NCBI GenBank assembly: GCA_022072025.1
Contig: JAJVIP010000011.1
Coordinates: 81,200-145,199, forward strand
Source of the DNA: Elusimicrobiota bacterium
GTDB lineage: Bacteria > Elusimicrobiota > Elusimicrobia > F11
Length of the DNA stretch: 64,000 bases
Direction of reading: 5' to 3'
Under the pieces are notes generated by a model that was given only the letters and a program-made list of their open reading frames with translations, was not told where the DNA came from and did not search any database. Positions 7,038 to 27,356 of this stretch are shown here, piece after piece; the stretch's first letter is position 1; each line of letters begins with the position of its first letter. The position numbers and the translations under genes are program-made.

Positions 7038-9392
7038 CCAAAAACCTGGATTGTTCTTCCCGTTTATTGGGATACCGAGTCATTTCTGGAGCTTCGAAAA
7101 AAAATACCCGTGTCCGCTTCCTACCTACTCATTGATGATTCCGCGGGTGAAGATTCGGCCATATCAAAATTAGAAAATGATCCCACGCTGCGTATTCTCA
7201 AATGTCCCCGCAACATGGGTCATCAAAAAGCCCTGGTGTATGGTCTGCGAACTTTGGTTCCCGAATTGGGAGACAATGACATCATCTTAACCATGGACAG
7301 CGATGGCGAGGATAAACCTGAGGATGTTCCTTTGCTTCAGAAGAGGCTGATCGACAACCCAGATAAAATTATTTTGGCTTACCGAACCAAACGAAACGAA
7401 TCCCTACCGTTCAAGATTCTCTACTTTTTCTTTAAGATTTTATTTCGTCTTGCCACAGGCCGTATCATACGTTCAGGAAATTTTGCGGGATTTCGAAGCG
7501 GCTTCATCAAACAATTCTTGGGCCATCCATTCTTTGACCTTTGCTACTCCTCGACACTGTTAAACCTCGGTGTCCCCATTGAATATATTCCGTGCGAAAG
7601 GGGCAGGAGATATCAGGGTTCCTCTCATATGAGTTATCTCAAACTCATTAAACATGGATTTTCAATGATGCTTCCCTTTCGAACTAAAATATATAAAAGG
7701 CTTCGCTTCGCGTTGTTCACCTTATTGGGAATTTTGGTGGGATCGGCCATTTTTTCCCAATCCAACACCTATGATGAACCCTGTTTCATTACGGCGGGAG
7801 TGACTCATGTGGCCACGGGGAAAATCGAATTGGAGACAGTCTATCATCCTCCCCTCCAAAAATATTTGATGGGCCTAGCGGTTTTATCGGCCTTTCCATC
7901 TTTTCCAATGGGGCTTCATCATCTTAGAGAAATAGATCCATTCTTATACGGCCATAGGTTTTTCTATGAAAACCGAATTAAACCGGAATTTCTTTTAGCT
8001 TTGGGCCGCTTACCCACGTTATTTCTATCTCTGCTACTGGCCGGATTATTATTTGCCTGGGCCCAACGTTGGTTCGGAGAAGGGGGCGCCTTGTTGGCTT
8101 TAACCGCTTATATTTTGGAGCCAAATATTCTCGCCCATTCGAGTATCGCTTCTATGGACATCGGGGTCACCGCATTTATGTTTGCGGCCTGTTACTTTTC
8201 GCTAAAGTGGCACGAAGAAAAAAGAAGGCATGATATTTACCTCGCAGGCGCTTTCGCAGGGTTTGCCATGGCCACAAAACTTTCCGGGGCATTCGTTTTT
8301 TTTTGGATTGCGATTCTTCTTTTAACTCTCCCTCTTTTTGACAACGAAAAAAGGTTTGTATTAAAGAAACCTGTTTTTTATTGGACCTTCAGCAAGACTT
8401 TGGTCGCGGTTTTATTTTGCGCTATCGCAATGATTGTTTTGATTTATCAAGTCCGCTATGCGGGAATGTTTTTGGATCTTTTGAAAGGAATGGTGGAAGT
8501 GGTTTTTGGGGACCATCCCACCCAGAGATATCCAAATTTTTTCCATGGCCAGAATAAATGGGGCGGGTGGTGGTATTACTTTCCAATCGCATTTCTTATT
8601 AAAACAACTCTGCCTTGGTTGATCTTACTGGGTTTATCCCTGGCGGTGGTGCCTTGGAAAAAAAAGGGGCCATTGCTTCTATTGTGCGGATCTTTCTTGT
8701 TGGTATGTTCCATTTCCGACAAACACAACGGCCTTCGATATTTTTTACCAGCGTTCCCATTCTTTTGTCTTTTAATCGGAGGGTTGGCGCCTGCTCTCGG
8801 GGCAAAACGCTGGGCCCGTTGGTTCATAAGTGGAATGTTGATGTGGATGGGAATCGAAGTGGGATGCTTGTTCCCCAATTGGTTGACTTATTTTAATCAG
8901 ACGGTCGGTGGGCCGTCACAAGGATACAAATGGTTGGTGGATTGCAACCTTGATTGGGGCCAAAATATGCCACAACTGCGAAGTTATTTAAAGAATCATG
9001 GAAATCCAGAAGTGATTGTGGCCTGTTTTGGAACAGTTAACCATGAATATTATCTGGGACCTCATCAAACATTGATTTTCGATCACAACACAACCAATGG
9101 CCGAACAAAACACATCAACTCTCAATCACCAGAAAGAGAATGGTTGATTGTCAGCGCCACACTTCTTCAAGGTTTTGGTCTGTCAGATCCCAAAGTTTTT
9201 TCTTGGTTGCAACAGAAAACTCCCTTAGCTCAAGTGGCCAACAGTATTTTCATTTATGATGTGACCCATGACGCGGAAAGCCAATTCAAAATTGGCGAAA
9301 TCTATCACCGCAATGGGCAAAGCGCTTATGCCGATCGGCAATTGCAACGCGCCAAAGACATTATTTCCCAATACAAAACTGCCGGAAAATAG
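7020..9392 (+). CDS. Fusion protein: N-terminal GT2 polyprenyl-phosphate sugar synthase (Dpm1/ArnC-like) plus C-terminal GT-C PMT/ArnT-like glycosyltransferase
   Basis: N-terminus VLPVYWD...DSDGEDKPEDV (GT2 DXD region). The remaining ~550 aa are polytopic with PMT/ArnT-like loops. The 5' end overlaps the divergent TMTC-like gene. Confidence 0.7.
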   Translation: MTTLTQPKTWIVLPVYWDTESFLELRKKIPVSASYLLIDDSAGEDSAISKLENDPTLRILKCPRNMGHQKALVYGLRTLVPELGDNDIILTMDSDGEDKPEDVPLLQKRLIDNPDKIILAYRTKRNESLPFKILYFFFKILFRLATGRIIRSGNFAGFRSGFIKQFLGHPFFDLCYSSTLLNLGVPIEYIPCERGRRYQGSSHMSYLKLIKHGFSMMLPFRTKIYKRLRFALFTLLGILVGSAIFSQSNTYDEPCFITAGVTHVATGKIELETVYHPPLQKYLMGLAVLSAFPSFPMGLHHLREIDPFLYGHRFFYENRIKPEFLLALGRLPTLFLSLLLAGLLFAWAQRWFGEGGALLALTAYILEPNILAHSSIASMDIGVTAFMFAACYFSLKWHEEKRRHDIYLAGAFAGFAMATKLSGAFVFFWIAILLLTLPLFDNEKRFVLKKPVFYWTFSKTLVAVLFCAIAMIVLIYQVRYAGMFLDLLKGMVEVVFGDHPTQRYPNFFHGQNKWGGWWYYFPIAFLIKTTLPWLILLGLSLAVVPWKKKGPLLLLCGSFLLVCSISDKHNGLRYFLPAFPFFCLLIGGLAPALGAKRWARWFISGMLMWMGIEVGCLFPNWLTYFNQTVGGPSQGYKWLVDCNLDWGQNMPQLRSYLKNHGNPEVIVACFGTVNHEYYLGPHQTLIFDHNTTNGRTKHINSQSPEREWLIVSATLLQGFGLSDPKVFSWLQQKTPLAQVANSIFIYDVTHDAESQFKIGEIYHRNGQSAYADRQLQRAKDIISQYKTAGK

Positions 9393-12303: not shown

Positions 12304-12478
12304 ATGGGTCCAAGCCTCCGTTTCCCCAGGGCGCGCAACGAATCAATCGCTTCAATCCAAAAAACAAACCCCACAGGCCTCGCGCTTTCACGGCCTCCTT
12401 CATGTATTCCGAACAACTCGGGATATATCGGCATCGCCCCCCCAAGTACGGAGAGAGGGCCCATTGATAGAAGGACAC
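12296..12478 (-). CDS. yidD: Membrane protein insertion efficiency factor YidD
   Basis: 60 aa MSFYQWALSPYLGGRCRYIPSCSEYMKEAV... matches the YidD/haemolytic-domain signature (PSCSEY). Overlaps the yidC start by 8 nt. Confidence 0.8.
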   Translation of the reverse strand: MSFYQWALSPYLGGRCRYIPSCSEYMKEAVKARGLWGLFFGLKRLIRCAPWGNGGLDPYE

Positions 12479-12527
12479 AAGTGAACAAAGGTAGCGAGAC
12501 AGGAAAATTCCAGCGGGGTGGAAATTT

Positions 12528-12662
12528 TTAGGCGGAAAGTCGTTTTCGTTTTTTAAATCGACGGCGACTTAAGACCCCTCGCCCGCCAGAAGTCTTCATG
12601 CGAGCGCGAAACCCAATTTTCTTTTTTCTACGACGTTTGTTTGGCTGATACGTTCTTTTCAT
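12528..12662 (-). CDS. rpmH: 50S ribosomal protein L34
   Basis: Manual translation gives [44 protein letters not shown] (44 aa), which is unmistakably L34. Below the ORF-track size cutoff. Confidence 0.9.
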
Positions 12663-12848: not shown

Positions 12849-15800
12849 GTGGGGGCGTTCGTGTATACTCAACACGCTCGGCGAAAAGTCGGGCTCTTTG
12901 TTTCCTTCATATATTTCATCAGCCAGTGCGCGCTGGCGCATACGATGGAATTGAACCTCCTTAAAAACCGCTCGCATCCGCTCCTCTTTAACCCGCCCCT
13001 ATCTCTTCCCGCATCAATCGGGACCTTCCGCAAGCGAAATGCCGGTCACTCCGGTTTGACTGTCATTCACATCAGCGATATCCACCTAAACCACGAAGCC
13101 CAGGAGAACATCGGAAATATGGTCACGCAATTGATGAAAGCTGGCGAAGTCCGACTGGTGGCATTGGAAGGCGCTTTTGAAACCATTCACATGGATCGTT
13201 TTCGATCTTTTAGCGATCAAGACGCCCTCCGCCGCGCGGCGAAGTATGCGCTCAAAAAGAACCAAATTTCTGGCGCGGTTCATTCTTGTTTAACCTTTGA
13301 TGGAAAGGCGCCTGCATTGGTGGGCATCGATGATGAAATCAGTTACAAAACCAACATGGAGGCCTACCGCCAAGCCCACGCCCTGATTCCCGCAATGAAG
13401 AGTTCACTTAAAGAGGAACGTGCGTATAATAATAAGGAGGCAGAACAGTTATTCGGCCCGGAGTTATTGGCACTCTACAACCAATCCATCGCATACCGAG
13501 CCAACCAGATAAATACGGGAACCTATCTCCGCTTTTTGTCTGACGCTGGAGCAGACCTTGCCCTCGAATTGGAAACCTTTCTGGCTGCCTCAGAGATTGA
13601 ATCCGCACTCGACTTCTCACAAGCGGGCCGCGAGCGGACACTATTTTTTGAACGTCTGGCCGTATCTTTATCAAGGCAAGCCGTCAGGGATTTGGAAAAT
13701 AAGAGTTCCGCTTTTCGCTGGGGACAAATCAACCAAGCTGGTTATTACAGTTATCTAAGGGAATTGAGCAAAAACGTTGGCCTTGATCTGGCTCATTACC
13801 CAGCTTTCGCGGAATACGTTCGTTACATCCTTCTTTCCAACGACATCAACGTGGAGAAACTGTACCGATCTTTGGATGAAACGGAAGACCGTTTGTTCAA
13901 GCAGCTCATCCAAACACCACTTGAGCGAGCGGTGGTGGCCAAATCAAAACGTCTTGCTCTCAGTGAAAAACTTGTGGATTTCTCACTGACACCGGAGGAA
14001 TGGAAGGAATACTGTAGAAGCGAGCCGATGGCCCGTCCGACCTCACGGGAACTGCAACCATTTGAATCGTTCTACCGAGAAGCTGAAAAGCGTGACCGAA
14101 AGATGGCGGAAAACCTCCTAAAGGCAGTACATGGTGCAGGAAATAATCAATCCCATCAGGGGCCAAGTACTGTCGTTCTGGTGACCGGCGGCTTTCACGC
14201 GCGCGGAATTGAAGAGATTTTGACCAAAGCCGGAGCAACTGTGGTTTCTTTCGTCCCGCGGATCACCAAAGTGGAAACCGTGTCCGGCGCGGAAAATTTG
14301 AGTCTGTTCGTTCAAGAAAAGGCTCCGCTGGAAAAACTCTTCGAGGGACAAAAACTTTTCCTCTCCCAAAATCCCGCCAACTTAATTCATCTTATTCCAG
14401 GAATAGCCGCAGTGAAAGCGGTCACCACCCCCGCTGTTCCGGCGCAGCAAGTGGTGGATGGCTTGCTGCCGCAGGGGCATGGCTCGCGCATGACCGCTCG
14501 AAAAAAAGGGAATGAAGTGCTGGTCACTCTCCAATATCGGGGACAAAATGAAACCACGGCCTACCAAGTCGATCCGCAAGGAAACATCCAATCCGATCGC
14601 CGCATACGGCCCAACCCACTCCCCGAACTGCTGGCGTTGACGCTTACGCTTTGGTTGGGAACGTCAGTCTTTATCAACCCAGCCGCCTTTATCCTGCAAC
14701 TCGCATTCACAATCGCGGCAACACGGCTGGTGTGGTTTTCCTCAATATTCGTTCACGGTCTTGGGCATGTGGTGTTCAAATGGTGGGTTGATAAAAATTA
14801 TCGGATGAGCTTGACCGAGGCCGCAGAAGGAATAACTTTAAGCGAATTTTTTCTTGGCCTGCTCCCGTTCGCGCCGATCTTTACGCCATGGTTGTCGAAT
14901 CGGATCAGCGTTGCTCCTGGCGACCCTGACCCCGAAAAGGTTTCCTTTAAAGCGCTGGGCGGGCCGGTATTCAATATTTTTTCGGCAGGCGCCGCCGCGG
15001 GAGCGCTTGTCTTCCTCAGCCGTTTCCCGGGCCATCCCTTCTATCTCTCCGCGCTCTTGTATTTGTTTCTTGTTCTCAACTTTGTTTTTCTGGCTGCTTC
15101 GGTGTCGGACTTTGAATCCTTCGCCACGGGCCTGGCCCCGGATGGGTTTGCCTGCGGGTTTCTGGATTATTTTTCCCCGCTCCGCAAGCTGATCGGCGGC
15201 GAATCCCGGTTCACATACGGTCCGATGTACCGGAACCAGCAACTTGTTCGCCAGCAAAAGGAACAACGACAATATTCAAATGGAAGATGGACCGGCGTTA
15301 TTCAACGCGCGGTCGAACAAATCACCACAACCACCAAAATATTGAGCAACCGCGGCACCCAAGCCTATGGGTTTGAGGTCAAATTGCGCACACCCCAAGG
15401 CGCCGTGGTATTGGCGGGTTTGAAAGACGTGAATCCAAAACGAGCCACGCTTCACCGCCGACTCGCCGAAGACCTCGTGAAAATCCTCAACCGGGCCATC
15501 CTGTCCGGGCTGACCGTATTGGATGATTTTTTTTCCTATTCATCGCACCTGCGATTTGGAACCTCTTCCGCGCCTTCGAAAATTGAAACGCACCCGCACG
15601 CCAGTCCCGAACAATGGGTGGAGAGATATAACTGGTCCGATCCTTCCCGCGCCATCCGTCAAGTTCGTGAGATTTTCCAAATCAGCATAAAACACAACGG
15701 GGACAACGATGGCATCAAAGATATTGAGGAAGTTCTCGAAATGTATCCCTTTTATGTATTCGGGAAAAATTATTCGTTCAAAGAGATACGACGGCAGCTG

Positions 15801-18800
15801 AACAGAATTCTATATAGGGATCCCACCCGCGGTGATTCGCCCGTGATCGCTTCTTTGCTCTCCCTGTTCATCACCCAAGGCCGTTTCGACGCCGCGGCTC
15901 GACTGGCTTACATCCAAATGGCCGATACGTTCCAGAATGCCTTTCAGGACCTCGATAATCCAAGCAAAGTTGATCGAATCGCAAAAACTTGGGGCGCCGC
16001 GTTTGAATCGATCTTTAAAAAACACCAAGAACATATTTTTGAAAGGAGCGAAATCGGTTGGACGCCGAATGTGGCGTATATCAAACAGGTGTTTTTACCG
16101 GCGCTTAAAAATGCGTTGGGCCACAACCGACAAATCGTTGAGGACCCTTATTTAAGGGCCCTTTTCACTCATGAAGAAAACTTTGATGCGTTCATTCAAT
16201 CCACCGTGCATTTGTTTCTCTACAACGACACCTACCGTGGGATCCAGATGATGGTCTCCTCCGCCCAATCCTCAAGCACTTTCGGTCTTTCAGTAAACAA
16301 CACGCTGGAACCAAAAAAGAATTTCTGGCTCGCCAAAGGTCAACCGGCCGCGATGGGCCACAACCCCGCGACCGGCGAAATCATCACCGCCTCCGACCCC
16401 GGAGCGGTCTTGGGGGCGTTAAACGAAAATTCGCGGATCCTCACGTTTAATGACAGTCAAGGTGAAATCGTCGTCTTGGACATGGAAGATCCCTGGTCGC
16501 CTCATATGTCCATTTTTTCCCTCAGCGCCCATCGTGAGCTGACGTCGGAAGAAATCGAATCGCGTTGGGTGAATCTTGAAAAAAATCCTTACATCAAGAT
16601 TCCGGATAAAAACGGCAATGGCACATCCAACCTAAAAAAAGATTTGACCGACTTAAGTGCGGTTTTGGCCAACATCCACGATAGTTTTGACTTGAAGCAC
16701 CGAAACAATCCACGGAAACCTTCAAATCGGCTGTCGGCCGATCGCCTTAAGAAATGGCTGGTTGAAAAGGCCAATAATTTTCATTTCAAAACAGAAGCAA
16801 AAAGCCAAATGGCCGATATTGTTTTTATTGCCGAGGGTTCCACCCACGACGTTCTCTTGAGAAAAGCCCATGATCTGTCCGCGGTATTCCCCGGGCTCAA
16901 TATTCAAGTCATCACGGGGAACGATTACATGCGAGACAGCGAATCCTATTTCAGCGGATCGGGCAAAGATTTTTCCATGGGTAAAAATACTCTTGTTTTC
17001 TGCGCCAGCCAATCCGGGATGACGTTTTCCAACGTGGAGTCGGTCCGAGACGCTGAATATCGAAGGAGGAAGGGCCAATTAATGGACGTCTTTATCATGA
17101 CCGGGGAGTGGTTCTCCGTCATGGGGGACTCGCTGGGCCAGGAATTTTTTCCGGATTCCGAGTTCAGCGGCCGCCTCTTCAGCAACATGAGCGGCCGAAG
17201 GTACTCCGAAGCCGCCACGATGGCCACCGCCACCGACTTTTTTTTCAGCGAATTGTTCTTGGATATTTTTTCCGACATAAGCGATCTGCAGCCCTTCAAT
17301 ATGAAATTGTCAAAAGAAGGAGTGGCACAACTAAAAAAACAGATCATACCGCTCATCAATACCGCCATTCCGGAACTCACCGGGGTTGATGCCAATAAAA
17401 ACTTGGTCCCATCGGACGTTCATCGGCGCCTGTTGGAAAGGGGTTGGTATCTTTCAGACAGCGTGTCGGAGCAGTTGTTCATGATTTCAATGCTGCGAAT
17501 TTATACCTTTGTGTCCGTCACGCTTCATCTCCCCATTTTTAGATTGATGACAATGATCCTGGTCGGGGCGGTGCTCTTGACGACTGGATTGCCATCTTGG
17601 AGTTCCTTGTTCGATGGAACGTTGATGGCTTTTTTGGGGCTTGCGGGGGGAGTTTTATTCCATTTCGCAAACATTTTGGATGCCCTTTTCTACTCTCACC
17701 AGGACATCCTTTTTACCTACCTGATCCGGTTGCTCCAAGGCCGGCCCATTCGCGCGCGGATCGGTCCGCGGTTTTTGGCCATCGGCGGGCCGCACAGTCG
17801 TCTTCTTCGTGAATATTTTAGGGCGTCCGTTTTGGAGGCGCCAGGGGTTCTTCAATTTGCGGGAGTGGACGGAGCGGATTTGGATGGTGATTTCATGCAC
17901 CGATTCAAGGACTCCAACCGCGGAGCCCTGGTGTTTTTCCATATAGACGACTCCGAATCACCTGAACCATCACATCAGTCGGATGCCACCTCCGCAAGAA
18001 TGACTTTCAATCAGACCAACGGCGTTCAAAATTGGGGTGTTGGGCCGGAAATCATCATCAATTCGATTGCCCCGCAAAAGGAGTCCCAGTACGTGGTTCC
18101 ATCTGTCGCGGTGGACAACTCCGAGGGCCAGCCGGTTGGAGGATATTCCAAAAACGACAGCGTTTTTAACGACCTTCATTCCCGGTGGTTCAATGAACTG
18201 AAACTCTTGGTAAGTGGTCAGGTGGTGGCGGCGGAAATGTCGGACAATTTGTCCAAGGCGCGAATGCGGTTTTACGTGCGCCGGTCCGATTCCCCGCTCC
18301 AAATCTTTTTGGAAAATATGGCTCGGCCGGTGTCCGCCGCCTATTCCGCCATCGCCTTGAGAGCGAATGCCATCATGATGAAACGGTTTTTCCGGAGCGG
18401 TCAAGAATCCCGCATTTTTGAGCCCGGAAAAGGGCAAAGCGGCCTCACTGTGTTCACCACCCAAATCATGCCGCCCCACCCCCTGGACAAACAAGCGGCC
18501 GAAAGAGATATTTCCGCCATCGCCGATCATTTGCGCAATTTTGGTTTGAATGAATCGATGCCGTGGGTGCCCGAGTCCGGGCCCATCGCTGTCGCCATGG
18601 CAAGGCTTTATGATCCAATTCTGGCTGTCCACAAAAACACGGGAGGTAACGAGAGAGCGGTGGCAACAAATGCCGCGCCAGCCACCGCTTTGGGGAGCGG
18701 TTATCCTCAGCGAAAATCCAACACAAGACGTTACTCATGGGGGATTTTCGGCGGGAATGGCTCCACGCTCTATTCGGGTTGGATGATTGGATTTATATTG

Positions 18801-21800
18801 GGCGCTGTGGCGCTCTTCGATCAACTCCATATCAGTCACCCTTCAGCCGTGTTAACAACAGCGACGATTCTCTTCGGCGGAGTTTGGTTTCTGATGAGAA
18901 GGCAAACGGGACCGCCTCCGTCTCTCCGGCTCGCTTTCGAAACGCTGGAACGCAGGGATTTTCTTAATGCGCTGCCGCTCACGGAAGCTCCAAAAACCGG
19001 CCCTCCCGAACCGGCTTGGGTTGAAGTCGCCCATAATAATCTTCTCAACATCATCCAAATCAACGCCCAAGAAAAAGTGCTGGTTGATTCCGACTCCAGC
19101 CAAATCAACCAAATCCGCTTGGACTATGTTTTAAACGAACGTCCCGTCGTCAATGTCCTTGATCATTTTGGATTTGATGTCTCAGGAAAAGCGGAATCGT
19201 TTCTTCTCACGCAAAAGGTTGACGGGAGGACGAAACAAATACCCGGTGAGTTTTCAGAATTCGACCCACAGGGAAGACCTCTCATTGGCAAGGCTTTCGA
19301 TGCGGATTCCGGACAAACCTTTGAATTCAGCTTTGAGCACAACTCATTCATTTCAGATTCCATCATCGGATTTGTCTCGGACGCAACCATCACCGATTCT
19401 GCTGGCCACTCTATTGTGTTGGTGATCGATCCAAGCCAGATCGAATATTCAGACGGCGCCCTATCCATCGAAATTGTGCCGACGCCCTTGTCTCGGATGC
19501 CGCCGCTTCCCAAAGTTAGAGAAGTGCGTCCCGTTGTGGACTTGGATTCCTCCCCGTCTAATTCCCCCCCTCCGCCGCAAATTCCCCTCTTTGGCTCCCG
19601 GAACTCCGAGGAGGAAATGGACGAAGAGACAGGATTGCCTCCCGAAGCCGCACTAGCGATCGCGCCCAACTATGAGATTTTGGACCGCTTGCCCCCGGAC
19701 CGCGAACCGGCCGACGTGAAGGCGGATGCGGCTGCACCGGAAGTGGAAAATGAAAGGACAGCAACCATCATCTCTGCCAAAGCGGAAGCCCAAGCTCCCA
19801 ACCTTCCTCGACAGAATGTTGAAGGCCTGATCGCGAGTGGCGATCGCTTTCGCGGCGGTGACGGCGGCTCTGCGATCAATCAAAACTTGACCCCTATTTC
19901 AGATGAATCTTGGGTCCCTTTCGATCCTAGAGCAGCGCTTTTGCTCGGAGCGGGGATTGTTTCGATGGCGGCTTCATCAACGGCATCAAGATTCTCGTTG
20001 GCAAGATTGACGGATTGGCTCGCCAGGCCGAAAGTGGCGCTGAGCCGGGATCATAAAACCCTGACTTTGAAATTCTCGCGCCGGTCAAAAATTGAAGTCT
20101 GGTTCCCTTCCGGAGCGACTGAGCGGGAGGTTCACTTCCGATCGGTTAACGGCAACGGTCCATTTCGGCTGATCGGAGGAGCGATGGAAGTCCACTTGAA
20201 CCGCGCCACTGGGGAACTGAGGTTCCAAAGTCCGCAGGAGAACGGGCCGGTTTTCCTTGTTCCCAATCCAAACGGCGGAGTGGACCGGCATACATCGTTG
20301 GTTTTACCTCTCAATGAAAAATATCAACTGCCGGCGAGCCTACCCACTGATACCGCCGACTGGTCGGCGGCGCGGAAAATATTGCGCGTTCTGTTTATCT
20401 CGATCGCCTTCCTATGCCTGGGCGCGGCCCTCACCCTATGGGTGGGGCCGAGCCTTGCGCGCCTTGACGCCGAAAGTCTTCTCCATTGGACCGCGAAAAA
20501 GATGGCGTGGGCGCAGCAACACAAAATTGAGCTGACCAATTGGACGGGACTGATTGGTTCTACGCTTCTTATCTTTTGGATATTTCGCGACAAATCACCG
20601 CTTTCTACCCACGAGTCCTGGCGCAAAAACTTAAAGACATGGTTTTACCGTGGTTTGTTTTTGGCGACTCTCATCGGCATCAATCTATTGCCCATCCAAT
20701 GGTGGGTGCCGGCGTATTTGACCGCCGCGGGTTTCGGATTGTTTTACGGCTCGGTTGCATTCGCTTATTTCATCTTTGTGCCGTTCGCTTGGGCGTTGCG
20801 CCTGATCAGTCTTCTGTTCCGTTGGCACCCCGCTTTTTCCGCGAAGGCGTCCCTCTATAAAGATCTAAAAGCCGTCCTCGGAATGAGTTTGGTTATCGGT
20901 TTGGCCGCTGTCGGTTGGCGTTCGAGGGAGCGTTTGCTTCCGGAAAAACCCGAAGCGCGTTTGGAGCGGATGATGAAAGATTTTTCTCACACGCCGTGGC
21001 CCAAGACGGTGAGCAAAAGCGGCACGCCGTTCAACCAAAATACGTCCCTGAACCAAGACGAGGTCCCGGTGAAAAATTTTAAAACGCAATTTTCTCGTGA
21101 TTTCGCAGTGAACCCGGTGCGGTTTCAATCCGGGCCGACGTCGAGTCTCGTGGTCCTGCGCGCGCAAAAACAAGGTGTTCGGGAAGTGCATCCCAACGCT
21201 TCTTTTTCAAAGATGGAATGGGTTGATCCCCTCAATGAAATCCCCTTGATGGGTCAAGAACCGATGCTCAGGCTCATACGGCCGGTGTTGGAGAAAAAGG
21301 CCAGTGACCTGTCCAAAGAAATCAATTACCGAAAACAGGTGTTGGAACATTTCGATGAAGCGGGGTTGTTTGATGGCAATTTCATAAAGGCGGCGACCAA
21401 GCTGACCAGTTGGGCGGAAATTATTTCATTGGAATTGGAACATTTTCAGCTCGCGCAGGAAGTGGACGTTTACGGCCACGTGTTGACGCCATTCAAAGAA
21501 GGAGAAACGGGCCGCGCCATCGCCAGCCAAAGAATGTTGGGAACGATGTCATCCTCCCCAATGAATACGCCCCAGGACAAATTGAGTGAAATCGATTCCC
21601 CAAGCGATATCCGGGGCGAAAACGGACAGGAGCTGTTTCAAAGCGACCGGCGGCTGACCCTGCAAGTGGTCCTGTCGATGCGGGATTGGATTATGTTTGA
21701 CACCCACCGAATTAAGGCCTCGTTAACAATGCGAGATGGCCACACGCACCAAGCCTCTGTGAAGGCTTGTGATTTTGAACATCGCCTTGACGACACAACC

Positions 21801-24800
21801 TTGCTCACGTTGGCCCTTTATTCGGATAAAAATATATTCGGCCCGGACCGCCTTCCCCTTTCGGTGCACATTGAAATGCCAATGAGAACCGTGCCGGTGC
21901 ACGCCGAGGACCCACGGGCCGAAGACCCACGGCTGGAATCCTCGTGGCCGGCCTCTTGGATCACCATGGGAAAGCGGACCTCGTCTCCCGTCCAAACCAC
22001 CGGCATTGCAAGCCGGGTGGATTTTTATGTTGATGAATGTGATTGGGTCAGCGCCGCTCAGGTGGTGGCCGGCGCCAACAAACGAGATCAAGCGCGGCGT
22101 ATCGCTCTTCTAAAGGAAACTCGAAAATTCGCGGACGCCGGCACAAAATTTTTGACCCGCTTGGAGAAACTTCGCAAACAAAAGAATGTGGTGTATGACC
22201 CGCCCGAAGTCAAGAAATTCATGGCGGTATTCAGGCAAATCAATGAGCTCTTGTCGGAACAAGGATTCGTTGAATACCAATCCCCCCATGAAGGTCTGAT
22301 TGTTGGAACCTTCAACTCTCAAGGCCAGGCCATTGGGGACGGACCTGTGGCGCAGATCCTGGGTCCGGAAATATTCGCGGTGGATTTGATAGAGGCTCAC
22401 GTCCCGGTGCAGATTAACGACATCTGTAAAGTTCGCAGTGTGACTGGAGAAGAAACGTTGGGTGTGGTGTTTGATGTTAAACCGGCTCTCGGCGTCGGTT
22501 CCGGGAGGCAAAACCAAAGCCAGATGAAAGGCGTGTTGATCAAAATCCCCGGGAAAAGAGTGTGGTGGGGGGACGGCCAATACGGCATCCAGGTGATTTA
22601 CCGCCCGGGCGGCTTCGCCACTTCCCCAAGGGAATCCTCCGACGTTCCACCGCCTCTTTATCCGGTCAGATACATTCAACCGCCGGATGAAGAAACCAAA
22701 ACATTGCTTGTGCAACGCCTCCTGAAAGCGGCTCAAGCGGCCCATCATCCCCCTGTTGTCCTTGAAACGCCAAAAGATTGGCCAGTCGGAAAAGTTTCTT
22801 CGGACGACTCGGAGATCGTTCGAAAAATAATTTTGGATCCCAACAGCGATTCGCGACGCGACCATTTACGCCGACATTTAGAAGATGAGGGAGTCAATGA
22901 AGCTGAAATGAAGAGTTTGGTTCTCAAAGGCTATTCCGACACGCGCCAAATGACATTGGATCATCTTTTCGCCCAACGTCGCATTGAAGACCTCATCCGG
23001 TTCCACCAACTTTTGTTTGACCAGGACCCAAACAGTGACATGACTCTATTGGCAAGGTCCCACATTCTTGCCTTGATTGATCTGGGAAGTTTTAATGAAA
23101 AAGACAAACACGGGCATCCCATCGAAGATCCGCTGGAACGTTTGTCGTTATCGGGATCCCGCAGTGAAGAACGTGGGGCGGCCGGTCGGTTTTTAACCTC
23201 CGTTCTTTGTTTGCCCCAAGCGGGTTACAATCCGCACACAGAACTGACTGTCCGGCGGATTCTCTCCAGCCAGTTTTGGAAAACTTATGCTGATAAAATT
23301 CAACTGGCCCGGGATTTGGAATGGGCCACAGAAACGCCTGTTAACCAAAACCTCCGCGCCAAAGCCGCCAACCTGCTTCGATCATGGGTGTTCGCTGACA
23401 TCGCCCTCCACACACTCAGAAATCTGGGGCCTTATGAAGAAGAGGCGGTCCATCTCGACTGGTGGGACTGGCTGGATGACAACCGTTGGTTGCGTTTGCA
23501 AGACATGCTGGCCAGCGATGCTGCGGACAGAGAATTTCTGCCCCATTCTCCTTGGACATTAACGGAGCAAGACCCGGAAATATATTTCAAAGGACTCATG
23601 AGCAACGACCTCTATGAGTTGACCCGGATCGAATACCAGGCTTTGCTGGAACAAGCGAAACAAGCTCCGCTGGGGCGTATCCGAGTCGACAACTACGGGT
23701 CCGCTGACGCTATCCCGAAAGCCGATCATGTGTTTGACCAACTGAACTTGGCCGCCCAAGAGACGGAGCATCTCCCAGGCTTAAACTCGCCGCATGCCAT
23801 TGAAAGATTCATCCATATCGCCGCGCGGGCCGCGTCTCGAAATCAATATTACAGATTCCGCCTTGAACAAAGCGTCAGGTTGTTAATGAAAATGGAAAAC
23901 CTTGAGTTAAGAAATTTTTTATTGGCGCGAATCACGGTTGAAACACAAGATCCGGGTCTTTTGAGTTTCCTTTTGGATAAAGACGTGGACGACTTGCTTG
24001 TTCAACACATGACCCAGATGAAAATTTATTCGCAGGCCGACCCCGGTCTTCTCATGATGCATCAACAAGCGTTGATCAAACTGTGCGGCTTGATGACGGC
24101 GGACGACTCCTATGAAAGGCGTGAAGACACTCTAAGAACCGTCATCGAATCGTTAAGCGATTCCGAATTGATGGACATCGTTTCTCCAGCCGAGACTCCA
24201 CGCACGACCATTCGGGATGTGATGGAAGGCGCCGGCATCCCTGAAGAGGTGTTTGTGTCAATGGCCCAAGTGGAATTTTCTAAACACGCCTTGCTCTGGG
24301 GCACCCCTCAAGTCAAAAAATGGAGCGGACTGACCATTGGGTCTCAAAAACTCACGCCCGAGGTTTCCGCGTTAAACAATATCGAGGATGCGTTATCCCC
24401 ACATCATTTTGATCCAAAAGATCTTGAGCGGGCGCTGCGTTTTGGTCTGCAAAACCATCCGAGCGCTTTCGACAAACTGGGAGAAGCCTACGAATTGCGC
24501 AAGAACCGGCTTAAAAACGTCTCGTCTCACGATCGCGTGGAGCACCTGGACATTTGGCGCCTGGGGGCTGGACTTGTATTGACGGTGCTGGGCCTCCTCT
24601 TGGGCGCGACGCTGCGGATTTTGAGAAGCAAAAAATCCGAGGCTCTGCTCATCAACGAAATCGGGAGCAGCCACCTCGGGTGGCGCCGTTGGTTGCCTCC
24701 ATGGTTATCCGGGTTGATTCTATGGACAGCGCTCTTCCTATCCTCTGAACAAGAGGGCTTTGCCGCTCCGGTCCATTCAATCCAACCGGGAATCGCACCA

Positions 24801-24992
24801 ACGAGGGACAGTCGCCCTTTAGAGGTCATGCCCACTGTGTCTCTGGGCCTTGCCGATCTCTATGACCGGATCCCCCATTCAGAAAAAAGAAGGGACAACT
24901 CCCCTGATGAAAAATTGCCATGGGACATCAAAGCCTCACGAATGATTGAAATAAAAATTAAAAAAATAAGACATCTGAACCGCCACGCCTGA
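12849..24992 (+). CDS. Giant multi-domain polytopic membrane protein (4047 aa), function unknown
   Basis: A single 12,144-nt open frame. An N-terminal signal-peptide-like segment (RRKVGLFVSFIYFISQCALA-HT) supports the GTG start at 12849; the alternative ATG is 12945. Roughly 20 hydrophobic helices fall in four clusters (about aa 590-790, 1460-1570, 1930-2010, 2350-2560, plus 2 near the C-terminus) separated by large soluble regions. Motifs: ISDIHLNHE near the N-terminus, HGLGH within a TM cluster, an SIS-like CASQSGMT (nt 17001-17024), and a Pro/acidic linker (nt ~19490-19760). Followed by a strong intrinsic terminator. Confidence 0.8.
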   Translation: MGAFVYTQHARRKVGLFVSFIYFISQCALAHTMELNLLKNRSHPLLFNPPLSLPASIGTFRKRNAGHSGLTVIHISDIHLNHEAQENIGNMVTQLMKAGEVRLVALEGAFETIHMDRFRSFSDQDALRRAAKYALKKNQISGAVHSCLTFDGKAPALVGIDDEISYKTNMEAYRQAHALIPAMKSSLKEERAYNNKEAEQLFGPELLALYNQSIAYRANQINTGTYLRFLSDAGADLALELETFLAASEIESALDFSQAGRERTLFFERLAVSLSRQAVRDLENKSSAFRWGQINQAGYYSYLRELSKNVGLDLAHYPAFAEYVRYILLSNDINVEKLYRSLDETEDRLFKQLIQTPLERAVVAKSKRLALSEKLVDFSLTPEEWKEYCRSEPMARPTSRELQPFESFYREAEKRDRKMAENLLKAVHGAGNNQSHQGPSTVVLVTGGFHARGIEEILTKAGATVVSFVPRITKVETVSGAENLSLFVQEKAPLEKLFEGQKLFLSQNPANLIHLIPGIAAVKAVTTPAVPAQQVVDGLLPQGHGSRMTARKKGNEVLVTLQYRGQNETTAYQVDPQGNIQSDRRIRPNPLPELLALTLTLWLGTSVFINPAAFILQLAFTIAATRLVWFSSIFVHGLGHVVFKWWVDKNYRMSLTEAAEGITLSEFFLGLLPFAPIFTPWLSNRISVAPGDPDPEKVSFKALGGPVFNIFSAGAAAGALVFLSRFPGHPFYLSALLYLFLVLNFVFLAASVSDFESFATGLAPDGFACGFLDYFSPLRKLIGGESRFTYGPMYRNQQLVRQQKEQRQYSNGRWTGVIQRAVEQITTTTKILSNRGTQAYGFEVKLRTPQGAVVLAGLKDVNPKRATLHRRLAEDLVKILNRAILSGLTVLDDFFSYSSHLRFGTSSAPSKIETHPHASPEQWVERYNWSDPSRAIRQVREIFQISIKHNGDNDGIKDIEEVLEMYPFYVFGKNYSFKEIRRQLNRILYRDPTRGDSPVIASLLSLFITQGRFDAAARLAYIQMADTFQNAFQDLDNPSKVDRIAKTWGAAFESIFKKHQEHIFERSEIGWTPNVAYIKQVFLPALKNALGHNRQIVEDPYLRALFTHEENFDAFIQSTVHLFLYNDTYRGIQMMVSSAQSSSTFGLSVNNTLEPKKNFWLAKGQPAAMGHNPATGEIITASDPGAVLGALNENSRILTFNDSQGEIVVLDMEDPWSPHMSIFSLSAHRELTSEEIESRWVNLEKNPYIKIPDKNGNGTSNLKKDLTDLSAVLANIHDSFDLKHRNNPRKPSNRLSADRLKKWLVEKANNFHFKTEAKSQMADIVFIAEGSTHDVLLRKAHDLSAVFPGLNIQVITGNDYMRDSESYFSGSGKDFSMGKNTLVFCASQSGMTFSNVESVRDAEYRRRKGQLMDVFIMTGEWFSVMGDSLGQEFFPDSEFSGRLFSNMSGRRYSEAATMATATDFFFSELFLDIFSDISDLQPFNMKLSKEGVAQLKKQIIPLINTAIPELTGVDANKNLVPSDVHRRLLERGWYLSDSVSEQLFMISMLRIYTFVSVTLHLPIFRLMTMILVGAVLLTTGLPSWSSLFDGTLMAFLGLAGGVLFHFANILDALFYSHQDILFTYLIRLLQGRPIRARIGPRFLAIGGPHSRLLREYFRASVLEAPGVLQFAGVDGADLDGDFMHRFKDSNRGALVFFHIDDSESPEPSHQSDATSARMTFNQTNGVQNWGVGPEIIINSIAPQKESQYVVPSVAVDNSEGQPVGGYSKNDSVFNDLHSRWFNELKLLVSGQVVAAEMSDNLSKARMRFYVRRSDSPLQIFLENMARPVSAAYSAIALRANAIMMKRFFRSGQESRIFEPGKGQSGLTVFTTQIMPPHPLDKQAAERDISAIADHLRNFGLNESMPWVPESGPIAVAMARLYDPILAVHKNTGGNERAVATNAAPATALGSGYPQRKSNTRRYSWGIFGGNGSTLYSGWMIGFILGAVALFDQLHISHPSAVLTTATILFGGVWFLMRRQTGPPPSLRLAFETLERRDFLNALPLTEAPKTGPPEPAWVEVAHNNLLNIIQINAQEKVLVDSDSSQINQIRLDYVLNERPVVNVLDHFGFDVSGKAESFLLTQKVDGRTKQIPGEFSEFDPQGRPLIGKAFDADSGQTFEFSFEHNSFISDSIIGFVSDATITDSAGHSIVLVIDPSQIEYSDGALSIEIVPTPLSRMPPLPKVREVRPVVDLDSSPSNSPPPPQIPLFGSRNSEEEMDEETGLPPEAALAIAPNYEILDRLPPDREPADVKADAAAPEVENERTATIISAKAEAQAPNLPRQNVEGLIASGDRFRGGDGGSAINQNLTPISDESWVPFDPRAALLLGAGIVSMAASSTASRFSLARLTDWLARPKVALSRDHKTLTLKFSRRSKIEVWFPSGATEREVHFRSVNGNGPFRLIGGAMEVHLNRATGELRFQSPQENGPVFLVPNPNGGVDRHTSLVLPLNEKYQLPASLPTDTADWSAARKILRVLFISIAFLCLGAALTLWVGPSLARLDAESLLHWTAKKMAWAQQHKIELTNWTGLIGSTLLIFWIFRDKSPLSTHESWRKNLKTWFYRGLFLATLIGINLLPIQWWVPAYLTAAGFGLFYGSVAFAYFIFVPFAWALRLISLLFRWHPAFSAKASLYKDLKAVLGMSLVIGLAAVGWRSRERLLPEKPEARLERMMKDFSHTPWPKTVSKSGTPFNQNTSLNQDEVPVKNFKTQFSRDFAVNPVRFQSGPTSSLVVLRAQKQGVREVHPNASFSKMEWVDPLNEIPLMGQEPMLRLIRPVLEKKASDLSKEINYRKQVLEHFDEAGLFDGNFIKAATKLTSWAEIISLELEHFQLAQEVDVYGHVLTPFKEGETGRAIASQRMLGTMSSSPMNTPQDKLSEIDSPSDIRGENGQELFQSDRRLTLQVVLSMRDWIMFDTHRIKASLTMRDGHTHQASVKACDFEHRLDDTTLLTLALYSDKNIFGPDRLPLSVHIEMPMRTVPVHAEDPRAEDPRLESSWPASWITMGKRTSSPVQTTGIASRVDFYVDECDWVSAAQVVAGANKRDQARRIALLKETRKFADAGTKFLTRLEKLRKQKNVVYDPPEVKKFMAVFRQINELLSEQGFVEYQSPHEGLIVGTFNSQGQAIGDGPVAQILGPEIFAVDLIEAHVPVQINDICKVRSVTGEETLGVVFDVKPALGVGSGRQNQSQMKGVLIKIPGKRVWWGDGQYGIQVIYRPGGFATSPRESSDVPPPLYPVRYIQPPDEETKTLLVQRLLKAAQAAHHPPVVLETPKDWPVGKVSSDDSEIVRKIILDPNSDSRRDHLRRHLEDEGVNEAEMKSLVLKGYSDTRQMTLDHLFAQRRIEDLIRFHQLLFDQDPNSDMTLLARSHILALIDLGSFNEKDKHGHPIEDPLERLSLSGSRSEERGAAGRFLTSVLCLPQAGYNPHTELTVRRILSSQFWKTYADKIQLARDLEWATETPVNQNLRAKAANLLRSWVFADIALHTLRNLGPYEEEAVHLDWWDWLDDNRWLRLQDMLASDAADREFLPHSPWTLTEQDPEIYFKGLMSNDLYELTRIEYQALLEQAKQAPLGRIRVDNYGSADAIPKADHVFDQLNLAAQETEHLPGLNSPHAIERFIHIAARAASRNQYYRFRLEQSVRLLMKMENLELRNFLLARITVETQDPGLLSFLLDKDVDDLLVQHMTQMKIYSQADPGLLMMHQQALIKLCGLMTADDSYERREDTLRTVIESLSDSELMDIVSPAETPRTTIRDVMEGAGIPEEVFVSMAQVEFSKHALLWGTPQVKKWSGLTIGSQKLTPEVSALNNIEDALSPHHFDPKDLERALRFGLQNHPSAFDKLGEAYELRKNRLKNVSSHDRVEHLDIWRLGAGLVLTVLGLLLGATLRILRSKKSEALLINEIGSSHLGWRRWLPPWLSGLILWTALFLSSEQEGFAAPVHSIQPGIAPTRDSRPLEVMPTVSLGLADLYDRIPHSEKRRDNSPDEKLPWDIKASRMIEIKIKKIRHLNRHA

Positions 24993-25085
24993 GCGGAAAT
25001 AAAAGCGTTGATTTCTGGCGGGATTTTAATTAGTGTGGCCAGAGTTTCATCGACGGAAACTATTTTAAGGTTTGGACACGGACGT

Positions 25086-25123
25086 CCTTTGATCAACGGT
25101 TTGATCAAAGGGCGTTTTTTTTT
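25086..25123 (+). terminator. Rho-independent terminator downstream of the giant ORF
   Basis: Perfect 11-bp stem CCTTTGATCAA / TTGATCAAAGG with loop ACGG, followed by GCG and a 9-T run. Confidence 0.75.
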
Positions 25124-25169: not shown

Positions 25170-25898
25170 ATGCATTTAGAAGAGTTGGGCATTCCATATA
25201 CGGATTTGGGTAATCAAAAAGAAATCGAGCTGTTTTGGCATATCAGCCAGAGCCTTGTTTCAAAAAGTTATCTGCAAGAGATTCTACAGTTGATTGTGAC
25301 AATGACGGCAGAAGTCATGAAATCAAAAACCTGTTCTCTGATGCTGTTGGACCCTGAAAAAGGGGAGTTGCGTATAGCTGCCACCCAAGCTTTGAGCCCT
25401 CTGTACATCAACAAACCCCCCGTTAAGGTGGGTGAAAGTGTCTCCGGCCGAGCTGTTCAAGACCGAAAACCGGTGGTGGTGGCAGATGTAACGAAGGACA
25501 AAAGTTATGGCTATCCCGAAGTGGCACGCAAAGAGGGCTTTGTATCAATGATTTCCATGCCTATGCAGATTGAAGGGCGTGTTATTGGGGTGATTAACAG
25601 CTATACCCATCAGGTTCATAATTTCACGGATTTGGAGATCAAAATTTTACAAGCGGTGGCCAATCAAGCCGCGGTGGCCATTGAAAACACCAAATTAAGA
25701 CAAGAAAATCTGGAAACCAAACAAGCCTTAGAAGACCGTAAAAAGGTGGACCAAGCCAAGGCACTGCTCATGCAAAAGGATGGGTTGAGTGAAATGGAAG
25801 CCCATCAACTGCTGCAAAAGACCAGCCGCGACCAGAGAAAGCCCATGGTGGAAATCGCCAATGCGATCTTGCTCGCCTATCCGTTGCGTAAAAAATAA
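25170..25898 (+). CDS. GAF plus ANTAR domain protein (RNA-binding antitermination-type regulator)
   Basis: A GAF-like sensor region is followed by the C-terminal ANTAR signature ALEDRKKVDQAKALLMQKDGLSEMEAHQLLQKTSRDQRKPMVEIANAIL. GAGGAG RBS 7 nt upstream of the ATG. Confidence 0.8.
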   Translation: MHLEELGIPYTDLGNQKEIELFWHISQSLVSKSYLQEILQLIVTMTAEVMKSKTCSLMLLDPEKGELRIAATQALSPLYINKPPVKVGESVSGRAVQDRKPVVVADVTKDKSYGYPEVARKEGFVSMISMPMQIEGRVIGVINSYTHQVHNFTDLEIKILQAVANQAAVAIENTKLRQENLETKQALEDRKKVDQAKALLMQKDGLSEMEAHQLLQKTSRDQRKPMVEIANAILLAYPLRKK

Positions 25899-25958: not shown

Positions 25959-27356
25959 ATGATGATCACAAGCAAAACAAACGAAGAACTTTGGGATTTT
26001 GTCCTTGGCCAACTTAAACCCGAACTTAAAGACGAAACATTTAATCTGTGGCTGAAACCGCTGAAGGCGGTAAAAAACGAAGAGGGTCAATTTGTGCTTC
26101 GCGTGCCCAATCGATTTTTCTCTGATTGGATTAAAGCTCATTATCAAACCCGCATTGAAAACTTGTTGTCGGAGTTTTTGGGAAGCCAAATCAAATTAAG
26201 TTTTGAAACCCAAGCCGATGAATCAATGTTGCCTGTCCCCACTCAATACAAACCCTCAACCGACATCAAACTAACCTCCTCTTCATCTACCAAAACCAAC
26301 GCTTTTGCCGACGAAATCAAAATAGAAGCCAAATATGCGTTTGATAATTTTGTGGTGGGACCTTCCAACCGATTCGCTGAAGCCGCCGCCGAGGCCGTGG
26401 CGCGCGACCCAGGACGGACTTACAATCCGCTTTTCATTTATGGAGGCGTGGGGCTCGGAAAAACTCATTTGCTTCATTCGATCGCCCGTCACATACTTAA
26501 AAATCAACCCAACGCCAGAATCACCTACGTTCCCAGCGAACGTTTTATTAATGAATTCATCGATGCTATTCGTTTTGAACGAATGAAAGAATTTCGATCC
26601 AAGTACCGGGGGCTGGATTGTTTGCTGATTGATGACATCCAATTTCTTATGGGAAAAGAATCTTCTCAAGAAGAATTTTTCTACACGTTCAACACCCTCT
26701 ATGACTCGCGCAAACAAATTGTGATCTGCTCTGACCGCCCCCCCAAAGAAACCTTGGTCGGGGATCGGCTCATTTCTCGGTTTGAATGGGGCGTCATAGC
26801 CGATATTCAACCGCCGGATCTGGAAACGCGCATCGCTATATTAAGGAAGAAGACCGCTGAATCCGGTCAACAAGCCCCCGATGACGTGATTTTGTTCGTT
26901 GCTTCCCATATCAAAACGAACATTCGAGAATTGGAAGGCTCTATTACGAGAATAATGGCCTACGCAAATTTGACCGGTTTTCCATTGACAGTCGATACCG
27001 CTCGAACTGTTTTAAAAGACATTTTAACAGGCCCTGACCATGCGGCACCTGTAACGATTGAGCAAGTTCAAAAAGTGGTGGCGCGACATTTTAATTTGGA
27101 CCTACGAGACATGAAATCCAAACGTCGCACCGACGCCATCGCGTTTCCCCGACAAGTGGCCATGTATTTATGCCGAACCTTGACCGAACTTTCCACCATT
27201 GAAATTGGGGCGGGTTTTGGCGGCAAAGATCACACAACGGTTATGCACGGCTGCAGTAAAATCAAAAACAAGCTTAGTGGAGACCCTTATTTTGTAGCGT
27301 TGGTTAATAAAATCACACAAGATATTCGAGAGGAAAGCCTGCTTATAACGCCTTAA
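25959..27356 (+). CDS. dnaA: Chromosomal replication initiator DnaA
   Basis: N-terminal domain ELWDFVLGQL...NLWLKPL. AAA+ Walker A GGVGLGKTHLLH. Sensor and box VII regions. C-terminal DNA-binding domain ...AMYLCRTLTELSTIEIGAGFGGKDHTTVMH. Confidence 0.97.
   Translation: MMITSKTNEELWDFVLGQLKPELKDETFNLWLKPLKAVKNEEGQFVLRVPNRFFSDWIKAHYQTRIENLLSEFLGSQIKLSFETQADESMLPVPTQYKPSTDIKLTSSSSTKTNAFADEIKIEAKYAFDNFVVGPSNRFAEAAAEAVARDPGRTYNPLFIYGGVGLGKTHLLHSIARHILKNQPNARITYVPSERFINEFIDAIRFERMKEFRSKYRGLDCLLIDDIQFLMGKESSQEEFFYTFNTLYDSRKQIVICSDRPPKETLVGDRLISRFEWGVIADIQPPDLETRIAILRKKTAESGQQAPDDVILFVASHIKTNIRELEGSITRIMAYANLTGFPLTVDTARTVLKDILTGPDHAAPVTIEQVQKVVARHFNLDLRDMKSKRRTDAIAFPRQVAMYLCRTLTELSTIEIGAGFGGKDHTTVMHGCSKIKNKLSGDPYFVALVNKITQDIREESLLITP

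Follow-up and report, generated by a model that had tools for sequence, protein, structure and literature searches.

The window analysed here, a stretch of 64,000 nucleotides from an Elusimicrobiota bacterium (assembly GCA_022072025.1, contig JAJVIP010000011.1, positions 81,200 to 145,199 of the forward strand), carries between rpmH and dnaA a single open reading frame (ORF) of 12,144 nt, the product of which (4047 amino acids, aa) we lean towards reading as a mosaic inner-membrane protein that combines a TIKI-type head, a site-2-protease (peptidase M50)-like membrane module and a GlmS-like module, and that would mature as a polyprotein. Within it, aa 769-1900 can be assigned with high confidence, from sequence profiles and a predicted structure, to a complete GlmS/GFAT-like fold with conserved glutaminase residues. 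An earlier note, made from the letters of the window, had described a membrane-embedded giant of several domains, and this description holds; part of the body, for most of which the note had no name, is a complete GlmS/GFAT-like enzyme. The segments of the protein up to the end of this module are the following (window coordinates):

12849..12944, plus strand, aa 1-32: signal-peptide-like segment with a basic n-region (RRK) and a hydrophobic stretch (...FISQCALAHT), conserved family-wide
12945..14618, plus strand, aa 33-590: family-defining head, a TIKI/ChaN/EreA/TraB-like alpha/beta core interrupted by a ~300-aa helical insertion
14619..15128, plus strand, aa 591-760: site-2-protease (peptidase M50)-like membrane module with HGLGH (aa 636-640), GGPVFN and N744...S751..D754
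15153..16598, plus strand, aa 769-1250: class-II (N-terminal nucleophile, Ntn) glutamine amidotransferase domain of the GlmS type, starting at an invariant Cys769-Gly770
16701..17468, plus strand, aa 1285-1540: first SIS (phosphosugar-binding) subdomain, with the loop CASQSGMT (nt 17001-17024, aa 1384-1391)
17475..17726, plus strand, aa 1543-1626: hydrophobic helices between the SIS subdomains, an insertion also present in the homologues
17727..18548, plus strand, aa 1627-1900: second SIS-like subdomain, in a low-confidence part of the model; its Foldseek alignment to GlmS spans the whole target

The GlmS-like module is unseen by curated profiles (the Pfam GATase and SIS models gave no match even at E<=10 on isolated segments). 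Class-II amidotransferase motifs can be recognised by eye after the M50-like module, and with a seven-sequence profile the top matches in the PDB were GlmS and PurF (E 0.007-0.1). The hhalign comparison with E. coli GlmS gave a probability of 94% (E 1.6e-7), starting with Cys769 on Cys1 of GlmS, and a 15-sequence profile ran colinearly along GlmS residues 1-476 (92%, E 6.6e-7), with SQSGMT opposite SQSGET. Judged in the 7- and 15-sequence alignments, C769, G770, R/G835-836, H900, R902, T905, N950, G951, D952, D996 and S997 are nearly invariant; C769, R835, R902, T905, N950, G951 and D996 pair in the hhalign alignment with Cys1, Arg26, Arg73, Thr76, Asn98, Gly99 and Asp123 of GlmS. The S-x-S-G-x-T phosphate-binding loop is present as ASQSGMT (SQSGET in GlmS), and the earlier suggestion that CASQSGMT is SIS-like was sound, hhalign and Foldseek both placing it as the phosphate-binding loop of a GlmS-like isomerase domain.

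An AlphaFold2 model of aa 762-1950, built on an alignment that included no GlmS sequence, reached a predicted local distance difference test score (pLDDT) of 80-95 over its first ~780 residues (glutaminase and SIS-1). Foldseek matched it to full-length human GFAT-1 (E 1.4e-17) and to E. coli GlmS (E 8e-16, TMt 0.68), with TMt of 0.60-0.68 to the two full-length enzymes, as for an Ntn glutaminase with two SIS domains; isolated domains were also recovered (glutaminase 1xff, E 1e-6, TMt 0.74; isomerase domains, E ~1e-6). The second SIS-like region is conserved in the relatives P0003, P0004, P0005 and P0016. The module thus resembles GlmS and GFAT in its domain order (glutaminase, SIS-1, SIS-2), in a predicted fold that superposes on the whole of GlmS and GFAT-1, in the glutaminase catalytic residues and in the SQSGxT phosphate loop. 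It differs from them in a helical insertion of ~120 aa within the glutaminase domain (aa ~1015-1135), in the transmembrane (TM) helices between the SIS subdomains, in an identity of ~10-12% with no assignable isomerase active site, and in the position of the catalytic Cys, which is residue 769 of a 4047-aa chain and not residue 1. At least in part, the sequence of the giant that escapes curated profiles is a recognisable, housekeeping-type enzyme.

In class-II (Ntn) amidotransferases the Cys is residue 1 of the mature chain, and its free alpha-amino group is used. As encoded, Cys769 is internal to the chain and not an N-terminal nucleophile, so that for amidotransferase activity the chain would have to be cut between Ala768 and Cys769. 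In every member an invariant Cys-Gly stands ~15 residues after the M50-like module. That the Cys has to be N-terminal, and in some lineages already is, is argued most strongly by the stand-alone relatives and their starts: the EukProt homologues P0157 and P0158 begin exactly M-C-G-N-W-G, and P0152-P0156 have an M50-like domain directly before the same CG (with HExxH intact in P0152-P0155). On these comparisons the giant is probably cleaved at Ala768|Cys769. The polyprotein reading is further supported by internal Tat (twin-arginine)-signal-like segments in 11 of 150 family members, and cleavage has likewise been proposed for giant proteins of Omnitrophota (10.1101/2023.11.21.568195).

The block between the head and the amidotransferase domain (aa 591-760) is probably, although at lower confidence, an M50 derivative that is catalytically impaired in the window protein. 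It shares with site-2 proteases (RseP, aq_1964) an HxxxH at the end of a membrane helix and an 'LLP' loop, and may also share a 'GGPxxN' helix and a later helix ending in a conserved Asp, in what would be the motif order of RseP; relatives keep HExxH and 'SDLPGGP'. In hhalign, E. coli RseP was aligned with E 0.005 but a probability of just 7%, the low-probability pairs being HGLGH with HEFGH, LLP with IPLGG and GGPVFN with AGPVAN, and a later helix ending in the conserved Asp754. A 15-sequence profile matched the Aquifex site-2 zinc metalloprotease aq_1964 weakly in the PDB (E 0.2). The same block of relative P0016 reads HEGGH and matches Peptidase_M50 with E 2.3e-4 (21 bits, cut-off 27.2). 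Unlike M50 peptidases, the module of the window protein has HGLGH in place of HExxH, the catalytic Glu being replaced by Gly (as in 6 of the 7 bacterial members), has no PDZ domains, scores below the curated thresholds in all comparisons, and is fused in cis to an enzyme whose N-terminus it would have to create. To regard HGLGH as a metal site, as had been done before, was reasonable: its position is that of HExxH in the M50-like module, with Gly in place of Glu.

The head is assigned with moderate confidence to the TIKI/ChaN/erythromycin-esterase fold, as a putative hydrolase. Its invariant residues are D77, H79, N81, Q85, E107, G447, G448 and H450, and among these D77-x-H79, E107 and H450 (invariant in a 31-sequence alignment) correspond in sequence pattern to the 2His/2acid motif of the TIKI superfamily. 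His and Glu are 28 residues apart, as in RRSP (H3902/E3930) and Bcr135 (H85/E113), for which, as TIKI-superfamily hydrolases, the 2His/2acid motif is catalytic (PMC6254334). The AlphaFold2 model of the head, from the same 31 sequences (pLDDT 85, predicted TM-score (pTM) 0.83), has the parallel beta-sheet alpha/beta core of the TIKI/TraB/ChaN/erythromycin-esterase superfamily; Foldseek of the head against the PDB gave no significant match (best, an Ere-family protein, E 0.05). The ChaN/Tiki Pfam model (PF04187) matched at the equivalent place in four independent members, each time below the gathering score (15-21 bits, cut-off 27.7; best E 7.3e-6, in one relative). The head therefore has in common with this superfamily the (D/E)xH...E...H constellation and the His-Glu spacing, and differs from it in the ~300-aa insertion that splits it, in that no curated family covers it, and in being found always at the start of very long membrane proteins, following a signal-like segment. 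The interpretation of ISDIH as a metallophosphoesterase-like motif was rejected, as ISDIH, although of functional significance, holds the (D/E)xH of the TIKI motif (D77/H79/E107/H450).

In a rather unlikely alternative, the protein is one uncleaved polytopic chain. The GlmS-like module, its Cys buried in the chain, would be no glutaminase but a sensor or scaffold that binds a phosphosugar or glutamine, while the Glu-less M50-like module would be a mere membrane anchor; the whole would then be a signalling or structural envelope protein and not a chain of enzymes. The loss of Glu from HGLGH in the bacterial members counted above, the unrecognisable isomerase catalytic residues and the lack of a known protease cleavage motif at Ala768|Cys769 agree with such a chain, and pseudo-enzymes are frequent in mosaic proteins. 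However, the residues of the whole glutaminase set (Cys, Arg-Gly, His-x-Arg-x-x-Thr, Asn-Gly-Asp, Asp-Ser) hardly vary even where identity falls to 16-25%, which is hard to explain without catalysis, and some homologues start at Met-Cys.

If the giant is a cleaved polyprotein, as we prefer, the cut at Ala768|Cys769 could be autocatalytic, as in propeptide-bearing amidotransferases, or could be made by the adjoining protease-like module. The product after cutting would be a membrane-anchored polyprotein, the pieces of which may link a cytoplasmic reaction, the glutamine-dependent amination of a phosphosugar-type substrate, to a periplasmic role in envelope metabolism as hydrolase or adaptor. 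Several points weigh against this reading. With its catalytic Glu lost, the M50-like module probably cannot itself cut. For the isomerase catalytic residues of GlmS (E488, H504, K603) no equivalents could be assigned, the alignment ending at residue 476, and confidence in the SIS-2 part of the model is low (pLDDT 50-70). No function is assigned across about half of the protein (aa 2017-2510 and 2695-3900). A basic RRIR stretch lies just before the first M50-like helix and, by the positive-inside rule, would put the head end in the cytoplasm. The putative cleavage at Cys769 is plausible, and the internal catalytic Cys makes cleavage of these giants checkable through one precise expected product, an N-terminus at Cys769.

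A broader and more speculative proposal, which we think unlikely in its full form, is that the head-bearing giants are self-processing membrane polyproteins, single ORFs doing the job of operons. The TIKI-type hydrolase and/or the M50-like module would cut the chain, the cut at Ala768|Cys769 would create the N-terminal nucleophile of a membrane-tethered GlmS-like amidotransferase, and internal signal-peptide-like segments (Tat-type in several members) would send the released pieces across the membrane. Were this true, the unit of an M50-like module and a GlmS-like module with TM helices would be a new enzyme family, occurring also as a stand-alone protein (~1600 aa), including in eukaryotic transcriptomes.

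The stand-alone proteins are 1545-1753 aa long (P0152-P0158; Logan, JGI, EukProt) and consist of an M50-like domain with intact HExxH, CGNWG and the series glutaminase-SIS-TM-SIS, the two EukProt transcripts starting directly at MCGNWG. They may represent an undescribed membrane-bound GFAT-like family that extends to eukaryotes. A GlmS-like enzyme that carries membrane helices and an M50-like domain in cis is a candidate new enzyme family, and would merit study on its own if confirmed. As to the Tat-like segments, RRxF[LIVM] was matched 14 times in the 11 family members mentioned, against ~3 times in shuffles (the motif alone being counted). Such segments lie deep in P0085 (aa 601), P0094 (aa 703 and 1730), P0123 (aa 651), P0003 (aa 3397) and P0005 (aa 3593), and after several of the internal motifs come a hydrophobic stretch and a site of the AxA/AQ type.

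Searches with curated families (Pfam and NCBIfam, whole protein and segments) returned nothing above threshold, as did a single-sequence PDB search with the giant protein; a word-indexed protein search found a single relative, P0001 (query aa 760-1545), and the same search with aa 2015-4047 found none. The earlier view of a protein without a nameable family is thus correct insofar as no curated family recognises it, but the head has more than 7000 relatives and the protein is no orphan. The head family was opened by an exhaustive HMMER search with a two-sequence profile of aa 1-1084, which was matched by 7185 cluster representatives at E<=1e-3 and by 2086 at E<=1e-30. The best 150 matches all cover only profile positions ~10-580 (430-610 bits), and the lengths of these 150 members vary from 553 to 6013 aa. 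At three loci from GTDB species genomes, all of them Elusimicrobia metagenome-assembled genomes (MAGs), the giants measure 3727, at least 3936 and at least 3950 aa; only their first 500-700 aa are shared with the window protein, and those giants that are not close relatives share no more than this among themselves. Of the named relatives P0006 is the nearest; it comes from a Candidatus Omnitrophica MAG. The Pfam families matched across 17 bodies nearly all occur once only; among them are ABC1 kinase, peptidase M48, NAGPA, sigma-70 regions, methyltransferases, subtilase, GH77, epimerase, SNF2, adenylate kinase, and HEAT and TPR repeats. The family is accordingly one of a constant head and an idiosyncratic body, a large uncharacterised set of giant mosaic membrane proteins, and its giant members would reside in the inner membrane. 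A C-terminal tail domain universal in the family was considered and is unsupported, BLAST and hidden Markov model iteration giving several separate tail clusters. The conserved, high-confidence N-terminal domain offers a handle by which thousands of unannotated giants can be grouped.

A conserved N-terminus with a highly variable remainder would also be expected of a surface adhesin or secreted toxin-type giant, as most bacterial giants are (RTX, cadherin or Ig-repeat proteins), or of a polymorphic toxin, and the TIKI fold is known in the toxin effectors RRSP, HopBA1 and PMT. We nevertheless regard this explanation as very unlikely: self-BLAST of the 4047-aa protein revealed no internal repeats, on which ground a repeat adhesin was rejected, ~18-20 membrane helices are distributed along the chain, the bodies hold housekeeping-type cytoplasmic enzymes (GlmS-like, methyltransferases, kinases, sigma-factor-like regions), and neither an immunity-gene-like neighbour nor a secretion system lies nearby.

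Huge proteins are enriched, and unannotated, in Elusimicrobiota and Omnitrophica (PMC11573180), and such membrane proteins are a recognised blind spot in the genomes of both phyla. The 'Archaeovorin-type' giants of Omnitrophota are described in the preprint of West-Roberts et al. (2023; 10.1101/2023.11.21.568195) as TM-rich, with divergent enzyme domains and suspected cleavage. The window protein resembles them in coming from the same or a neighbouring phylum, in the alternation of many helices with enzyme domains that only structure prediction reveals, in an N-terminal domain of peptidase type and in the proposed post-translational cleavage. It differs from them in being ten times smaller (4047 aa vs >30,000 aa), in having no Pfam match to the SecA-like DEAD domain typical of them, and in adjoining no type-II-secretion-like or pilZ locus, its neighbours being rpmH/yidC and GAF-ANTAR/dnaA. 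A term search of the main text of that preprint found neither a TIKI-like head nor an amidotransferase module. Nor did we come across an earlier description of the TIKI-like head as a marker of a family, of a membrane unit made of M50-like and GlmS-like modules, or of the argument from an internal Cys for processing.

The 12-kb frame, a single genuine gene from an Elusimicrobia bacterium, occupies 12849..24992 on the plus strand with a GTG start and no internal stop, and frame 0 is favoured by codon-usage log-likelihood in each 200-codon block. That it is an artefact, either of a chimeric assembly or of ordinary genes fused by sequencing errors, is extremely improbable. The source is indeed a MAG, relative P0001 is split on its contig into 1072 + 847 aa, and the GC content at third codon positions is unlike that of neighbouring genes (0.58 vs 0.40-0.52); however, 4047 stop-free codons are impossible by chance, and the locus was recovered independently, with an agreeing frame, in the Logan assembly SRR10609165 (71.8-kb contig) and in the NCBI MAG contig (161 kb). 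Moreover, the domain order is kept in P0003, P0005, P0016 and P0004 (other samples, 16-33% identity), and the junction from the M50-like module to Cys-Gly is conserved to the residue. By exact-sequence look-up the public record of the gene is MCG3205146.1 ('hypothetical protein KCHDKBKB_01864 [Elusimicrobia bacterium]') and that of dnaA at the same locus MCG3205148.1. The public calls of both assemblies begin at Met33 (ATG at 12945), giving 4015 aa. The family N-terminal consensus F.T[NQ]C.LAHA aligns with aa 22-31 of the GTG-initiated product, before M33, which makes GTG (or another start 5' of aa 14) the likelier one; the public annotation probably begins the gene 32 codons too far downstream, the conserved FISQCALAHT lying before that start (window 12849-12944).

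The C-terminal half consists of the following segments:

18762..18896, plus strand, aa 1972-2016: two hydrophobic helices, then RRQTGPPPSLRLAFETLERRDFL
18897..20378, plus strand, aa 2017-2510: variable soluble region, Pro/acid-rich, for which relatives were detected in close homologues only
20388..20918, plus strand, aa 2514-2690: 5-6 clustered hydrophobic helices, of which the last corresponds to a Tat-signal-like segment in P0003 and P0005
20931..24548, plus strand, aa 2695-3900: conserved soluble region, common only to P0003 and P0005 (28-29% identity)
24567..24743, plus strand, aa 3907-3965: last hydrophobic helix pair

In total about 18-20 hydrophobic segments were found, close to the ~20 TM helices counted before, but they form six groups (aa 14-32, 591-750, 1543-1626, 1972-2016, 2514-2690 and 3907-3965) and not four clusters. 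Over aa 68-1746 and 2520-3989 the window protein runs colinearly with P0003 (5029 aa) and P0005 (5125 aa), and aa 2520-3990 have homologues in these two only. Their helix before the C-terminal region is a textbook twin-arginine signal (TRRxFL...), the RR of which is lost in the window protein. Faint HlyD (membrane-fusion, or periplasmic adaptor, protein) matches occur in the homologues only (HlyD_3, E 1.2e-4, in one of the two; HlyD_D23, E 0.05, in P0003); HlyD barrel/lipoyl domains were matched neither in the window protein itself nor in the PDB profile search, which with the C-terminal 1200 aa was empty and assigned no family. A tail domain of ~170 aa in P0003 and P0005 is absent from the window protein, which ends ~80 aa past the last helix, and the 180 nt up to the GAF-ANTAR gene leave no room for a remnant of it (window 24750-24992 compared with the C-termini of P0003 and P0005). 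Directly after the helix pair of aa 1972-2016 stands LAFETLERRDFL / LNLESLEDRTLL (window 18930-18965, aa 2028-2039; aa 2276 in P0003), which may resemble the N-terminal motif of planctomycete giant exoproteins.

With regard to topology, the head is predicted to be periplasmic, the GlmS-like module cytoplasmic and the C-terminal region periplasmic. An RseP-like arrangement of three helices would place the metal site of the M50-like module in the cytoplasm and hence the head in the periplasm, in keeping with the signal-like N-terminus; the same arrangement would make the GlmS-like module cytoplasmic, which matches what its substrates require, and the ancestral Tat signal together with the HlyD hints points to a periplasmic C-terminal region.

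The genes and the terminator around the giant gene are the following:

12528-12662, minus strand: rpmH, then yidD, yidC and mnmE, all on the minus strand
25080-25117, plus strand: intrinsic-terminator-like hairpin (17-bp stem and T-run), downstream of the giant gene
25170-25898, plus strand: GAF-ANTAR gene, 3' of the giant gene
25959-27356, plus strand: dnaA, then dnaN, recF, gyrB and gyrA

Most of what the earlier note had reported on the locus was confirmed: the uninterrupted frame between rpmH and dnaA (by the ORF listing, codon usage and two assemblies), the strong terminator and the GAF-ANTAR gene before dnaA, and the higher GC (0.51-0.54 vs 0.44-0.48 in the flanks) with antisense ORFs reaching 251 aa, which are to be expected from such a composition. 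The position is real, but the rpmH/dnaA neighbourhood is missing at the giant genes of the relatives L003, L005 and L006, so that it is a peculiarity of this genome and says little on function. An ultra-small or episymbiotic lineage, also suggested, is unsupported; the host is an Elusimicrobia MAG. No further copy of the head was found within the window.

The minimum of the cumulative GC skew (~18000-20000) falls inside the giant gene and not beside dnaA. The usual gene order is rpmH-rnpA-yidD-yidC; an rnpA ORF is absent here between rpmH and yidD, which are separated by a gap of ~50 nt (window 12478-12528). Farther upstream, 5571-7037 (minus strand) holds a 488-aa ORF with a TTG start and without a Pfam match at E<=1e-5, and 2571-4880 (minus strand) a PAS-HisKA-HATPase histidine kinase with a C-terminal staphylococcal-nuclease (SNase) domain, an unusual output domain. 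At 7020-9392 (plus strand) one protein joins a family-2 glycosyltransferase to a membrane glycosyltransferase domain of the PMT/PMT_2 (dolichyl-phosphate-mannose) type.

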